Below are positions 1-63,535 of a stretch of 64,000 nt of DNA, piece by piece. A program made the translations under genes and the position numbers. The stretch covers positions 14,942,001 through 15,006,000 of the forward strand of contig OZ024763.1 in the NCBI GenBank assembly GCA_964016885.1. The letters run 5' to 3'. The notes beneath the pieces were generated by a model. The model saw only the letters and a program-made list of their open reading frames with translations, made no database searches and was not told the origin of the DNA. Numbering within the stretch: position 1 is the first letter of the stretch; the number at the start of each line of letters is the position of its first letter. Source of the DNA: Eledone cirrhosa. Taxonomy: Eukaryota.

Positions 1-13
1 AGAAAGGGCTTAC

Positions 14-136
14 CTGAGAAAAACAGATAACGGTGAGGAGTATATTAATGAAATATGTAGTCCAGGTGATCGACTCTGATTGGAATATAACCTCATCGGG
101 TTGGAGAGGGCACATGGAATCGTTAGCTGACGGCAT
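14..136 (-). CDS. Candidate first coding exon, 41 aa with hydrophobic segment
   Basis: ATG at 136 with an upstream in-frame TAA. MPSANDSMCPLQPDEVIFQSESITWTTYFINILLTVICFSQ ends at a strong phase-0 donor CAG|gtaagc. A plausible acceptor (cttcttttatactccgattccag) at 453-454 would make the exon 14-452. Confidence 0.55.
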
Positions 137-986
137 TCTTGTTGATGGCCGAGGTGCACTGCTACAGTGTGCAGCTAGTTAGAATGGTGTTGGAACTAAC
201 ACAACACAACACAACACAACACAACACACTGCACAGCCTTACACAGACCTCACATCTCACCAATGCCCCCATACCTCCTCACCCAATGAACGTCAAATCT
301 ATCTCACACTCGTAGCTGACCCTCATGGCCGTCTCACCTTCACAACACCCACTCACAGTTGACCCCTCTCACACACCGACGTCACCCTAACATCTACCTC
401 ACCCCCTCCACAGCTCTCGTTGCCAACTGACCGATCAACCCAATCAACAGACCTGGAATCGGAGTATAAAAGAAGCATGTAATGTCCTTTGAGAAGTTGT
501 TGTTGTTGTTGGTGGTGGTGGTGGTGGTGTTGTTGGCAGTGGTAGTTAATGTGGTTGTTGTTGTGATTGTAGCTATGGTTGTTGTTGTTGTTGTTGTGAT
601 TGTGGTTGTTGTTGTTGTTGCTCCACTGTGTCTGACTAAATTAATAAGTGGTCAAAACAACTCCAGGAGTGAGAATAGAATTAAAAGCAATAATAGACTG
701 GGGGTGGTGGGCTGGGGTGGGACGGGACATATATTGGCAGGGTGGGGACAGGAGGAGGAGGGTGGTGGCAGAGATGGGGAAGGAGGGGGAGGAGGGTGGC
801 AGAATAGGGTAAGATATATATATATATATGTGAGTTGAGGACTGTTTACTGAACACATATATTGGCTTTGCTGGTGGTGGGATCGGGTGGGGTGGAAAGT
901 GTCTTGAGGGGGTGAGGTGGGGGTTTAATGTGGAAGGCTGAGAGTTTCTCATTCATACATACATCTGTTGACTGGAGAGAGAAGCA

Positions 987-3691: not shown

Positions 3692-3885
3692 ATAGGAACG
3701 AGTAGGACCCCGACGGCTGAGCTCAAGCCGTTTCGACGGCTATTTCTGGACTAAGAATTAGCCGTCGAAACGGCTTGAGCTCAGCCGTCGGGGTCCTACT
3801 CATTCCTATTACCCACTCTACTACCCTAAGTATTGAGTACTTTGGTGCGTTATGGTCCACCTGGTTCCTTACCACATTTCCTTCG

Positions 3886-3888
<3 letters not shown>
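3692..3888. mobile_element. Dispersed short element with terminal foldback (probable Penelope-like remnant)
   Basis: Palindrome 3692-3809 (aggaacgagtaggaccccgacggctgagctcaagccgtttcgacggc.. and its inverse) plus a unique tail abutting (TA)n. Copies at 25243-25437, 37999-38208 and 41240-41430. Confidence 0.75.
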
Positions 3889-3926
<38 letters not shown>

Positions 3927-3931
<5 letters not shown>

Positions 3932-4942
3932 ATGGGAACTTCTCTATCTGCTGACGATCTGGCTCTTATGGCAGAATCAGTAGAGGAGCTAGAGAATAAA
4001 TTCTGGCTATGGAAACAGCAGTTGGAAGCAAGAGGACTGAGAGTGAACCTAGCTAAGACAAAAGTGTTGATGAGTAGAAAAGAGGACAAAACCCTGATTC
4101 CGTCAGGGAAATGGCCATGTTCGATATGCAGAAAAGGAGCTGGCATAAATTCTATAAAATGCACATAATGCAGATCCTGGGTACACAAGAGATGTAGCGG
4201 GATAACAATCAAACTAACAGGTAGGGAGAAATACGTATGCAATAGATGTACAGGGAAATTAGACAGTAGAAGTCGCATTGATAGACACATTTTTCAAATG
4301 CAGGCGGGTGCTATAGAAGTGGTGGATAGCTTCCGGTACCTAGGAGATCAGATTAGCATGGGAGGGAGGTGTTCCGAGGCCTTAGTATCTAGAATAAGGA
4401 CAGGTTGGAAGAAGTTTAGGGAGCTGCATTCTCTGCTGACGAAGAAGGGTTTCTCCCTGCGTACGAAAGGCCGGTTGTATGATGCCTGTGTGAGGAGCGC
4501 CATGTTGCATGGTAGTGATACATGGGCAGCAACTGCAGAGGATATGCGATGGCTGGAGAGAAATGAGGCAAGCATGCTCCGTTGGATGTGCAATGTCAAT
4601 GTGCGTGAACGACCCAGCATGGATGTGTTGAGAGAGAAACTGTGTCTGAGAGGGATAGAATGTAGTGTGTGAGAGAGGAGACTGAGGTGGTATGGACATG
4701 TGATGCGCATGGAAGATGACCGATGGGTGAAGAAGTGCCAGGAAATGCCAGTTGAAGGAAGACGTGGTAGAGGTAGACCACGAAAAAACATGGGCGGAGG
4801 TGGTGAGAACAGACCTCAGACCGCTGAAGCTCACGGTGGAGATGACGAGGGACCGTGACGAGTGGAGAGATGCTGTGCTGAATAAGACCTGTCCCACCCT
4901 TGCAAGCAGGGAAAAGCGGACGTAAAATGATGATGATGATGA
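3927..4942 (+). mobile_element. 5'-truncated, degenerate RTE-clade LINE
   Basis: RT C-terminus (ADDLAL, GLRVNLAKTKV, FRYLG, KGRLYDACVRSAMLHG, LRWYGHVMR, RGRGRPRK) with a Cys/His finger insert. In-frame stops at 4166 and 4670, (GAT)n tail, inserted in (TA)n. Confidence 0.92.
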
Positions 4943-10683: not shown

Positions 10684-11264
10684 CCCTTTTATGTTCAAAC
10701 CGGCCAAAACAGGCCAGAATTCTCTACCTCTTTCTGTTGAAACTGGCTGTAACTGGTCGCTCAAACTGATGTTAAGGTATTGTTCTCAAAATAAATACTT
10801 TCAAAATCTCATAGATTTTATATTATGTGAGATAATTATGTGAGGTAAAGCCTTTACCATGAAAATACAATAGTATATATAGAGTAATGTAAATGTTATG
10901 TGAGATAATTATGTGAGGTAAAGCCTTTACCATGAAAATATAATAGTAAATATAGAGTAATGTGAATGTTATGTGAGATATTATGTGAGGTAAAGCCTTT
11001 ACCATGAAAATATAATAGTAAATATAGAGTAATGTGAATGTTATGTGAGATATTATGTGAGGGAAAGCCTTTACCATGAAAATATAATAGTATATATAGA
11101 GTAATGTAAATGTTATGTGAGATATTATGTGAGGTAAAGCCTTTACCATGAAAATATAATAGTATATATAGAGTAATGTGAATGTTATGTGAGATATTAT
11201 GTGAGGTAAAGCCTTTACCATGAAAATATAATAGTATATATAGAGTAATGTAAATGTTAAAGGG
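10684..11264. mobile_element. piggyBac-like MITE with internal 72-bp tandem array
   Basis: TTAA-ccctt...aaggg-TTAA ends. About six copies of a 72-bp unit at 10823-11258. Confidence 0.82.
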
Positions 11265-12413
11265 TTAAACTGATTTTTAGAACTAGATGAAGGGTTAGGA
11301 CCTTGTTCCACCTTTGCCATGGGTTAGCCTGGTATTGCAGTACTTCCAAGATTTAGCCCATCATATAGACTGCAGGGCACAGCTGAAACCCAACACTGAC
11401 TTAGGTGTAGAGTCTATCACCCTCTCTCCTTCCCACCTTCTTTCATTGCTTAACAATCTTCCTCATTTCTCTCATTTTCCTCTCTTTTGTTGTTTTAATT
11501 GCCGTTCTATATGATGATAATGATGATGAAGATGATGATGATAATCATCATCATCTTCCACGCCAGCATGGGTTAGACAGGTTTGTCCCATTTAGAGGCA
11601 AGTTGGGTCAGGTGACCGTGTCTCGCTCATATAGGACTGTTTCTGGATGGGTTTTCTACGGCTGGATGATAATGAAAATTATTGTGTACAGTGCTCAGGT
11701 GCACTACAACTCGTCAAAGGTGCATATATAGTACATATACTAATTGTTTCTACTTTAGGCACAAGACCAGCAATTACCCCAGTGCATTACTGGTACTTTA
11801 TTCTATCGACCCCGTAAGGATGAAAAGCAAAGTCAACCTCGGCGGGATTTGAACTCAGATCGTAAAGGGACGTAACTATGCTGCAAAGCATGGCGTCCGA
11901 CCCTCTACCGATACTGCCAATCCATAATAATGAAAATTATTGTGTACAGGGCTCAGGTGCACTCCAACTCATCAAAGGTGCATGTGTAGTACATAGAATA
12001 ATGTACAAATGTCAGGAAAGTGAACAGTGTATGAGTCATGATATACACACGGATACATGCGTGTGTGTATATGGAAGGGGAATATCAGGTGTAGTGTTGC
12101 CGAAATTCGGGAATCATGGAAGTTTTGAAGGATATCTAATGTCATCCATTTTACTGTCTCTCCAGGTTATTTCATTGTTAAATCTTTCACTTGATAGTGA
12201 ACAAAGCAAGCTTTTTGAAGATGTTCAAGCGTTCTTATTTAAATTAAAATCTTCCAACATAATTTTATATAAGAACGAAATGTTTCTATCTTAGTAAATA
12301 ATTCATAATTCAAGTAAATCCTTCAAAATTCTTCATTAATTAATTGAAAAAGAAAGTAATTTATAAGAGATATTAGAAATTGAGACACAAAATACTGTCT
12401 TGTTGCTCCACCT

Positions 12414-18256: not shown

Positions 18257-18973
18257 ATTGAACTCCGAGCCATGTAGCTGGGGTCCCAGTTTGTAGTGGG
18301 AACATACGAGAAGTTGGGGACAGTCGTTGATAAATTTGCCTCTCTTCTCCCCCTTAACATTCTCTCCATCATCATCAGTAACATCAGTAGCGGAAGGTGT
18401 GGTGGTAATCCAGCAGCGAAAGTTGTCACACACGAAATCCTTAACGGTATATTCCTGGGAAAGGGACACGTCACAGGAGGAGTAGGCAGATGAGGAGGAG
18501 AAGGAGGAGAGGGAGCTGGCCAGAGACGAAGAGGATTCCAGGGAACAGAACGGAGACTCCAGAGACTCCATGGACAAAACCCTGGTCTGCTGCGAGGAGG
18601 CAGTGGGAGTACAGGCGCTGTACTGGCTGTTGCTCAAGTCCTCGTCAATATAGGAAATCAGATCTTCGTCCTCGTTGTCAGATAGCAGTATGGTCTTCAC
18701 AGGCTGGTCGCTGTCATCCTTGTCTGGGTATTCACTGGGGACAGAAGTAGTAGTAGTGTCCCCTGCGTCTGGCTGTGGCTCCTGGTCAAAGGGCCCAGAC
18801 AGCAAAAGGTTCCCCTCAGGCATAATGACCACACAGGAGATGTAGTTATTCAACTGTTGACCGAAAAACAGGGGGTGTGGCCATTTCACAGGGGCCTCTG
18901 CTGGCCCTGTGTTTAGAGGCGTCGACTGCGATGGTGGTAGAATTGGGCGGGAGATACTTATAAGTTCCTCCAT
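18257..18973 (-). CDS. Candidate alternative first coding exon (239 aa acidic/Ser-rich N-terminus) inside the myosin-XVIII intron, or a nested gene of unknown function
   Basis: Only long complex-sequence non-TE ORF in the window (246 aa to the stop at 18233). Start context caacaATGG, GC-rich island, and a phase-0 donor AAT|gtaggt seven codons before the stop. No recognised domain. Confidence 0.6.
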
Positions 18974-29839: not shown

Positions 29840-31234
29840 CTTCAGAAAATCTGAGCATGAAAAAATGTTTCCGAAAGTCATGAAACCCAAATAAGGATTT
29901 TAGGAAGATTTTAGGAAGAGTCTTGAGCTTGTGTGACAGGTAGACAAAAAAAAAAAACTAAAAACAATAAAAAAACTGTAGTTATTATAATATAGATTGT
30001 TTACCCTCAGCGTATTACTGGAAGTATTCCAAATTGGTAAAAAAAAATAGCAACTATAACTCCAAGCATTTTGTCATTTCACATATGCCTGAGTGGGTGC
30101 ATAAGTATGTGTGTTGGGTTGCATACCAAACAGCTAGCGTCATCTGTGGTGCACATTGACTGCACATCACACCACCAGCCTCACTACCACCAAGGTCATC
30201 ACCCCTACCACCACCATTACTATCACCACCACCACCACCACTACCATCAGCAAGGTCATCACCCCTACCAACAAATTCAATACTACCACCACCTTCACTA
30301 CCACCCCCGCCACCATCACCACCAACACCATCATTACCATCACCGTCACCACCACTACCACCCACCACCACCACCATCGCCAATGCCACCATCACTACCA
30401 CCCCCACCAACACCATCATTACCATCACCGTCACTACCACCATCACCTTCACTACTAACACTGCCACCATCACCACCAACACCATCATTACCATCACTGT
30501 CACCACCACCTTCACTAATACCACTGCCACCATCACTACCCCCCCCCACCATCACTGCCGCCACCAAGGTCATCAGGCCCACCAACAACTTCACTACTAC
30601 CACCACCACCACTATTAATACTACCACCATCATCACTACTGCTATTGCTAACACCATCACTACAACCACGAAGGTCATCACCACTGTCAGCTACTTCACT
30701 ACTACCACCACCACCACCATCCTCATGGTTTCTCATGACTGGAACAGTTCTAGTCCTGTAGAAGTCATTTCTATCTAAAATAAAGATGATTATTTCCTAT
30801 TGACATATTGAGTACCTTATTTAACTGTGGTCTTATCCTGACCCCTTTTAGGATAAAATATATATATATATATATATAGGAGGCTTAGTGGTTAGAGCAT
30901 TGGCCTTGCAATCGAAAGGTTGTGAGTTCAATTCTCAGACCGGGTGATGCATTGTTTCCTTGAGCAAGACACTTTATTTCACATTGCTCCAGTTTACTCA
31001 GCTGTAGAAATGAGATGATAGGGACTGAGGTCCCTATCATTCCACTGTAAAGTGGTCGTGGAGGTGCCACGGCAAAAAAGCACCAAGCACTCACTGTAAA
31101 TGAGGTTGGCGTTAGGAAGGGCATCCAGCTGTAGAAATCAAGCCAGAATCAGTTCCCGTCCCACCCTTGCAAGCAGGGAAAAGTAGACGTAAAATGAAAT
31201 GATGAATGATGAAATATATATATATATATACGGC

Positions 31235-31898
31235 AAAGCATAAATGAACTAAATGATAAATTTGGAATACGAGGGATCAGACACAGTTTACTTGAGAGAA
31301 GACTACGTTGGTATGGTCACGTGATGCGCATGAAAGACGATAGCTGTATAAATAAGAGCAGGGCAATCAAAATAGATGGAAGCTACGGAGTAGGCAGACC
31401 CAGAAAAACCTGGAACGATTTGATAAATTCCGAACTTACACACTTACACCTCTCCAAGACAATGTGACTGGACCGAGATCTTTGGCGCTACGCAGTAATA
31501 CAAAAGACCCGCCTTGCCTCTTAACCAAAGTAGGCACCTCTTAACCAAAATACACCCCCACCCAATCCACACCACCCCTTTCGATGTAAAGTTATGTTGG
31601 TACCACAACATCCAGTCCTAAATAAATGAGATAATGAGATCGAGATCGTGTAGGTGTCACGACAAAAAAAGCACACAGTCCACGCTGTAATGTGGCTGTG
31701 TAGGTAACACGGTAAAAACCTCCCAGTCCACACAGTAAATGAGGTTGGTGTTAGGAAGGGCATCCAGCCGTAGAAAACCCGCCAGACAGTCTTATACGAG
31801 CAAGACAACCAATCTTGCCTAAAGTGGGAAAATTCCCATCCAAACCCATGCTAGTGTGGAAGATGGACGTTAAACAATGATGATGATGATGATGATGA
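31235..31898 (+). mobile_element. RTE-related retroposon 3' fragment (second family)
   Basis: ERRLRWYGHVMRMK..GRPRKTW remnant followed by a long 3' region ending in (GAT)n. Similar fragments at 24165-24512, 40200-40710, 44957-45586 and 60461-60960. Confidence 0.8.
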
Positions 31899-47278: not shown

Positions 47279-47344
47279 CTGACTTAATCCAATCCGGTAG
47301 TTCAGTTTATCAATATCCATGTGGTCCAGTAGCTGTTTGATGAT
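47279..47344 (-). CDS. MYO18A: Myosin-XVIII converter exon
   Basis: Acceptor is a pyrimidine run ending ctacag, donor gtaggg, 66 nt (phase 0 to 0). IIKQLLDHMDIDKLNYRIGLSQ; this motif is normally followed by VFFR.G in myosins. Confidence 0.92.
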
Positions 47345-62773: not shown

Positions 62774-63535
62774 TGATGGCTGCCCCGTCGTTATCGAGTA
62801 TGGCCATTGCACGATATACCATTATTAATAATTATTAATTAATGCTATCGTGCAATGCCTGTGTGTGAAGTTTATTTTTAAAGTGAGGAAAGACTGTGCA
62901 CTGAGCCAATCCCACTCTCTGAGCGACAGTAGCTATAACCTGAAAAGAAGAAAAGATCAACATCATCGGTAACTACTGAGCCACAGGTTTTATATCGGAG
63001 TTATCTCAGTTTCCTGAGTTGCCTTCTCCTAGAAGATTACCCTGACAAAGGCTAAGGGTCCTTCACTCCCAGTGGTTTAACCACGCGATCGGGTGTCCAG
63101 CCCAATTATTTCCAATTAGAATGCCCTGACAAAGGCTAGGGGTCCTTCACTCCCAGTGGTTTAACTGCACGATCAGGTGTCCAGCCCAATTATTTCCAAT
63201 TAGAATGCCCTGACAAAGACTAGGGGTCCTTCACTCCCAGTGGTTTAACTGCATGATCAGGTGTCCAGCCCAATTATTTCCAATTAGAATGCCCTGACAA
63301 AGGCTAGGGGTCCTTCACTCCCAGTGGTTTAACTGCACGATCAGGTGTCCAGCCCAATTATTTCCAATTAGAATGCCCTGACAAAGGCTAGGGGTCCTTC
63401 ACTCCCAGTGGTTTAACTGTACGATCGACTATCCAGCCCAATTATTTTCAATTAGAATACCCTGACAAAGGCTAGGGGTCCTTCACTCCCAGTGGTTTAA
63501 CTGCACGATCGGCTATCCAGCCCAATTATTTCCCC
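62773..63535. repeat. Dispersed repeat ending in an 84-bp x6 tandem array
   Basis: 62773-63070 resembles 23648-24057. The unit ccctgacaaaggctaggggtcc.. recurs from 63040 every 84 bp. Confidence 0.85.

Follow-up and report, generated by a model that had tools for sequence, protein, structure and literature searches.

A splice-site layout at the end of a short hydrophobic reading frame in a long myosin-XVIII intron of the octopod Eledone cirrhosa: a candidate recursive splice site

In a 64,000-nucleotide stretch of Eledone cirrhosa DNA (hereafter the window), the hydrophobic end of a 41-codon ATG frame also has the full layout of a 3′ splice site, which is followed directly by a strong donor at position 14/13. 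This overlap was missed by the first-pass annotation, in which the frame had been read as an exon that could give a membrane-anchored myosin-XVIII tail, with an N-out signal anchor tethering the IQ/coiled-coil rod. Position 14/13 is probably a real splice signal, and we put at about 0.4 the probability that it works as a recursive splice site (ratchet point) in an intron of more than 47 kb in the myosin-XVIII gene (MYO18); the 41-codon frame is likely an untranslated by-product of that splice site. The figure of 0.4 and the ranking of the four other readings weighed below are judgements and were not computed. The coordinates of the features are collected in Table 1.

Table 1. Features of the window, with positions counted from its first letter
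Feature	Position	Strand	Remarks
CAG/GTAAGC at 14/13: acceptor CAG (16-14), then donor (13-8)	8..16	-	Candidate ratchet point; alternatively, donor of the 41-codon exon
Pyrimidine tract 36-17 (16/20) and branch-point-like CTCAC 37-33	17..37	-	A at 34 (-21); encodes the hydrophobic end
AG-free zone, 58 bases	16..73	-	Upstream of the acceptor AG
41-codon ATG frame	14..136	-	Exon of the first-pass annotation; reaches the splice site in phase 0; ATG preceded by A at -3
Putative 5′ UTR of the first-pass annotation	137..452	-	G-rich sense strand, four out-of-frame ATGs, one microsatellite
Strong donor-like AAG/GTGAGA at 338/337	332..340	-	
Second acceptor-like AG/GT, CAG/GTCTGT at 453/452	447..455	-	Motor frame meets a stop at the third codon
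239-codon ATG frame, acidic and serine-rich	18257..18973	-	Phase-0 donor; candidate first exon of a motor-less isoform
Myosin-XVIII motor-end exon IIKQ...RIGLSQ	47279..47344	-	Last codon CAG; phase-0 donor; precedes the long intron
Myosin-XVIII motor exon	48042-47948	-	Match to O. vulgaris protein
Myosin-XVIII motor exon	50275-50080	-	Match to O. vulgaris protein
Myosin-XVIII motor exon	52456-52270	-	Match to O. vulgaris protein
Myosin-XVIII motor exon	60204-60045	-	Match to O. vulgaris protein
Myosin-XVIII motor exon	61725-61581	-	Match to O. vulgaris protein

The host gene and the layout at 14/13

The host gene is an octopod myosin-XVIII, and its exons and the 41-codon site all lie on the minus strand. 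Six exons, spanning 61725-47279, encode the end of the myosin-XVIII motor; five of them show 91-94% identity to the O. vulgaris protein CAI9741202.1 (P0003) by tblastn, whereas the match of the sixth, a short exon of 22 codons, was over-extended and is left out of this range. In Pfam, the O. vulgaris protein has the class XVIII architecture, with PDZ, class-specific SH3, motor and IQ domains. The first-pass annotation was correct in the gene, the phase and the next exon that it expected, as VFFRAG and the IQ region follow RIGLSQ in the O. vulgaris protein. The VFFR exon is absent from the 64-kb window, and thus the intron after the RIGLSQ exon measures at least 47 kb; the other five MYO18 introns in the window measure 0.6-7.6 kb. 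The 14/13 position is located on the sense strand of this very long intron, 47,265 bases past the upstream donor. Base 13 was rejected as the start of the canonical next exon, because the sequence from there reads V-S-P-F and not VFFR. Two contigs with at least 99% identity cover positions 1-190 and 240-480 with zero differences; they possibly represent the source sample and are not independent.

No gene of another membrane protein that might host the frame was seen among the unique segments of the window. Upstream of the first motor exon, at 62939 on the minus strand, an acceptor-like CAG/GTTATA with a branch-point match is possibly a missed small exon or a cryptic site. The plus strand carries fragments at 3830-4672 and 31213-31464 that, judged by eye from their translations, resemble a reverse transcriptase of the LINE/RTE type. 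Rfam gave no match near 14/13; its match to U2 snRNA on the plus strand at 11236-11366 (50 bits against a gathering threshold of 46) falls in AT-rich, partly repeated sequence and looks degenerate or spurious.

The claim of a strong donor at 14/13 is borne out by eight matches out of nine (phase 0), scored against a donor consensus. Donors of this strength number nine in the 47-kb intron stretch versus five on its antisense strand. The acceptor side of the site resembles the true acceptors of the gene: its CTCAC at -21 has a counterpart, at -20, in the true acceptor that precedes the RIGLSQ exon, and the pyrimidine count of the tract is within the range of the four true acceptors, out of six, that the comparison covers (13, 14, 16 and 18). 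The sense strand of the intron holds 1,928 AGs, of which 16 look like acceptors and seven directly precede GTRAG; 14/13 alone combines the two. Such a juxtaposition is expected 0.058 times per intron, and 0.011 times when a branch point is included, although both values flatter 14/13 because the acceptor and donor thresholds were chosen after the site had been seen. On the antisense strand, none of the 2,990 AGs is both acceptor-like and followed by GTRAG.

From the gene, the intron, and the layout of branch point, tract, CAG and GTAAGC with its rarity, all of which are observed, we infer a two-step order of splicing. In the first step, splicing would connect the RIGLSQ donor (47278) with the CAG at 14, with A34 as the branch point and the release of about 47.3 kb. 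Since CAG is also the last triplet of the RIGLSQ exon, CAG/GTAAGC would be restored at the junction and would serve as the donor for a second step, onto the VFFR exon, giving the ordinary full-length mRNA. Such a recursive layout would also account for the "SQ" ending of the frame and for part of the hydrophobicity of its peptide.

According to passages of PMC2773006, introns longer than 50 kb in five invertebrates carry 0.5-2.2 such sites per 100 kb on their sense strand and about 0.1 on the antisense strand, an enrichment of 4- to 22-fold or more; the five invertebrates of its enrichment table include no mollusc. Passages of PMC8605326 describe the two-step mechanism and a short cryptic exon after the recursive site; past 14/13, the window extends for 13 bases. 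In the Drosophila ratchet points of Ubx, kuz and Bx, as presented in parts of PMC8605326 and PMC2773006, an acceptor is likewise followed directly by a donor, in the sense orientation and within a very long intron, and 14/13 matches all but the last base of the fly consensus given there, (y)nncag/gtaagt. Unlike these ratchet points, the octopod site is a candidate, has an ATG frame running into it, and resides in a mollusc, a group for which the literature searches turned up no such site. A literature search, with thin coverage of subscription journals, returned nothing that names recursive splicing together with octopus. Against the recursive reading, the candidate is a single site, and a first step of 47 kb saves little unless the intron is far longer; furthermore, an ATG frame of at least 41 codons is expected to arise by chance with p ~0.04 only (local dinucleotide model).

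The 41-codon frame: exon or translated splice signal

The 41-residue peptide is encoded as the first-pass annotation quoted it, on the minus strand, which had been left unstated: its ATG occupies 136-134, its last codon ends at 14, and the frame is open for 55 codons from stop to donor. The N-D-S sequon near the N-terminus is found at residues 5-7 (chance p ~0.04 in the local dinucleotide model), and the uncharged hydrophobic run is also present, extending over 23 residues (22-44) after the peptide is joined to the next exon of O. vulgaris. The upstream ATGs noticed in the putative UTR number four (393, 326, 272 and 255), and all of their frames stop before 136. The "SQ" ending, likened to that of the canonical exon, is indeed there but carries little weight, since Q results whenever a CAG acceptor is read in frame; the true acceptors read in frame end in Q in six of six cases. 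The predicted RNA fold of 452-14 is unremarkable (z = -0.5). Use of the 41 codons as an in-frame cassette was rejected, since inspection revealed no good phase-0 acceptor upstream.

Next in probability to the recursive site, though unlikely, is the membrane anchor of the first-pass annotation, worked out here as a model in which an intronic promoter would yield a motor-less myosin-18 and its 41-residue N-terminus would act as the N-out signal anchor, holding the rod at a membrane on the cytosolic side. The frame has a strong phase-0 donor, an ATG with A at -3 and non-repetitive sequence, and the chance values for its length and its sequon speak for an exon, which could begin at the acceptor-like site at 453. 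Sense-strand donors with at least seven of nine matches number 111, and 17 of these end an ATG frame of at least 30 codons; by inspection, all 17 frames are microsatellites except the 41-codon frame, the 239-codon frame and one frame in a repeat element. The best 19-residue Kyte-Doolittle mean is 1.46 for the 41-residue peptide alone and 1.68 once it is joined to the O. vulgaris exon, compared with 0.95 for the canonical junction, and the charges fit an N-out orientation: the net charge is -4 ahead of the run and, past it in the O. vulgaris tail, 0 over 15 residues and +6 over 40. As an anchor, however, the run is marginal: it contains N, Q, S and T, and its rough insertion energy is +0.8. The sequon is weak, as Asp at its +1 position is called suboptimal in a passage of PMC5562741, and the four upstream ATGs precede the start. 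The codon score of the frame (-0.21) is like that of non-coding DNA (mean -0.22 in 56 overlapping windows, versus -0.14 to +0.23 in the six true exons), in a test of low power that picked the right frame in only three of the six true exons. AlphaFold predicts a helix at residues 14-40, but an intronic control is also helical at similar confidence, and the helix is therefore uninformative.

The hydrophobic run also has a non-coding explanation, since a full 3′ splice-site layout occupies the same bases. Upon synonymous recoding of the peptide with the codon use of this gene, 16 pyrimidines were reached in 3.5% of 20,000 trials (p = 0.035), and a pyrimidine occupies the wobble base in 11 of the last 12 codons of the frame, compared with 156 of 280 codons in the true exons. 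Thus, the DNA holds more pyrimidines than the peptide calls for, an excess that the anchor reading must take as chance. On the other hand, the wobble positions of membrane-segment codons may be U-rich anyway, and the peptide by itself goes far to impose the branch point (p = 0.64-1.0) and the AG-free zone (p = 0.42). True acceptors can themselves yield hydrophobic peptides, and two of the six exceed the hydropathy of the candidate when translated in frame (2.08 and 2.23). Elsewhere, an ATG frame of at least 30 codons runs into nine of 53 other acceptor-like CAG sites, a hydropathy of 1.6 is reached at only three of the 33 that are open long enough to score, and both properties are combined at two of the 53, both in simple repeats; an acceptor therefore does not usually yield such a peptide. 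The exon and the recursive readings each leave a coincidence of a few percent.

Similar peptides are seen at the same junction in public records. In the fish MYO18 records P0053, P0133 and P0135, a short hydrophobic peptide ending in Q opens the protein at the VFFR junction; it is apparently an acceptor tract that was translated, a case of the same illusion in annotated proteins. A partial paddlefish record that apparently includes a translated acceptor reaches a hydropathy of 2.43. Scans for membrane segments call for caution in this respect, as a pyrimidine tract plus CAG can be translated into a fake Q-ended membrane segment.

The anchor reading also has to contend with a peptide for which no homologue was found, in searches of limited sensitivity. 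There was no candidate among proteins of 73-2000 residues, no match in Pfam and no exact entry in the protein collection; the best ESM Atlas value was 0.81, and none of 591 pattern matches in metagenome contigs was confirmed. Two matches among 1.84 billion representatives were tandem-repeat proteins and were rejected as chance. Such blanks weigh little, since short isoforms can hide in clusters led by long or other sequences.

Motor-less isoforms and other uses of the intron

The long MYO18 intron probably holds alternative starts, which keeps the 41-codon exon alive. The 239-codon frame is nevertheless a better candidate than the 41-codon frame for a motor-less isoform: it is non-repetitive and has a strong start context, a frame-specific codon score and no hydrophobic end. 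It had no Pfam match, no Atlas match of at least 0.9 and no significant likeness to the N-termini of Daphnia and Ridgeia. In a fuller form of the anchor reading, to which we give the same low credence as to the original, an intronic promoter would swap the motor for the 41-residue N-out anchor, the same nine bases would double as a recursive site, and a soluble form would arise from the 239-codon exon.

Motor-less relatives lend some plausibility to an alternative exon in this intron. Gene predictions in Ridgeia (254 residues) and Daphnia (218 residues, acidic) join non-motor N-termini at the same VFFR junction; however, neither these N-termini nor that of Batillaria contain a hydrophobic stretch (maximum 0.66-0.85), which weighs against an anchor. 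The Batillaria N-terminus was set aside as a motor-less form, because a cluster mate has the normal junction. Passages of PMC3122231 describe N-terminally truncated isoforms of Drosophila myosin-18 (Mhcl, CG31045), of the same family, that are devoid of the motor and keep the tail; the Mhcl passages mention neither a membrane anchor nor the joining point of the isoforms. A search for motor-less MYO18 of 30-1092 residues returned 45 proteins, none of them named as Octopus. This blank weighs little, since clusters mix short and long members and full-length octopus proteins of more than 2000 residues fell outside the one octopus-seeded search. In metagenomes, a search for the VFFR exon gave 11 loci, two of which (L001 and L002) were judged to be MYO18, and both are too short to show the intron. 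In these two loci (L001:1-2366 and L002:1-1427), the VFFR exon is of an invertebrate MYO18-like type, and the 2.4 and 1.4 kb upstream of it, respectively, contain no motor exon; in L001, the next matched exons follow at a distance of up to 200-450 bases, and an ATG frame of 55 codons, which lacks a hydrophobic end, runs up to a phase-0 donor at 1822.

If the 41-codon exon is real, its product may also be a motor-less myosin-18 rod that is not inserted into a membrane, the site possibly serving also as a recursive acceptor in full-length transcripts. This reading, which we consider improbable, shares the exon evidence of the anchor reading and fits the borderline quality of the anchor. Precedents for headless rods from intronic first exons come from molluscan and fly muscle myosin (passages of PMC3912159): catchin/myorod of molluscs and the myosin rod protein of Drosophila carry a unique N-terminal exon, located in a myosin gene, that is joined to a coiled-coil rod (passages of PMC3912159 and PMC4410989). 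These are thick-filament proteins of muscle myosin-II, joined after the light-chain region or within the rod; the MYO18 candidate, unlike them, would keep the IQ motifs and, if anchored, would have a membrane location. A 23-residue uncharged stretch in the cytosol would, however, need a partner, and the missing homologue and the non-coding-like codon score tell against a soluble product as well. A literature search on headless or cephalopod myosin-18, with thin coverage of subscription journals, found nothing on point.

The region upstream of the 41-codon frame contains further signals, whose sites at 453/452 and 338/337 could bound a 5′ exon or a poison exon, or mark another recursive site. 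Downstream of 452, the first 120 bases are rich in G (G 0.47, C 0.08) and in this resemble the beginning of the intron at two of the six true donors, a likeness that is suggestive only. Another acceptor-like site, at 972/971 on the minus strand, belongs to the cluster just upstream of the frame. The least probable of the readings is a poison or cryptic cassette exon (452-338 or 452-14) that would stop translation two residues past the end of the motor and lower the output of myosin-18 through nonsense-mediated decay. The acceptor-like site at 453, the donors at 337 and 13, and the stop in the motor frame would suit such an exon, and premature stops are common in cryptic exons at recursive sites according to passages of PMC5126111 and PMC8605326. 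By contrast, no branch-point match is found at 453, an acceptor-like site within 500 bases is unremarkable where 16 occur per 47 kb, and the tract at 14 and the ATG frame are left unexplained.

The cell may also leave the cryptic donor, the tract and the short frame unused, their coincidence being due to chance; we regard this as unlikely, ranking it after the membrane anchor and ahead of the soluble rod. The site is one among very many examined, with thresholds set afterwards, the intron stretch holds nine equally strong donors and its antisense strand five, and the plus strand, which is antisense to the gene, offers an acceptor-like CAG/GTTATT at 12166 with a branch-point match and a 96-codon ATG frame, which shows that layouts of this kind also occur on the opposite strand. 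Against chance stand the expectation of only 0.058 for the juxtaposition and the clustering of three splice-like sites (453, 338 and 14) within 440 bases of mostly non-repetitive DNA.

Implications for myosin-XVIII and for long introns

The membrane attachment of myosin-18 is presented as an unsettled matter in passages of PMC7900500, according to which most studies find myosin-18A to be cytosolic and without a membrane segment. An earlier, debated proposal of a membrane segment in myosin-18, described in the same passages, concerns SP-R210/CD245 (myosin-18A as the surfactant protein A receptor); it differs from the octopod candidate in that a cryptic segment of a mammalian, motor-bearing protein would place the motor outside the cell (PMC7900500). 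If the first-pass reading is right, the octopod gene would encode an integral-membrane myosin-18 tail, providing a direct handle on membrane attachment, and a membrane-tethered IQ/coiled-coil rod could nucleate myosin filaments or tie them to membranes. Kinectin and p180/RRBP1, in which an N-terminal membrane anchor is followed by a long cytosolic coiled coil, work as this product would; they are encoded by unrelated genes, and their anchors are constitutive and established. If, as we tentatively prefer, 14/13 is a recursive splice site, the stepwise removal of long introns would be extended to cephalopods, with their large introns, as a modest extension of a known mechanism.
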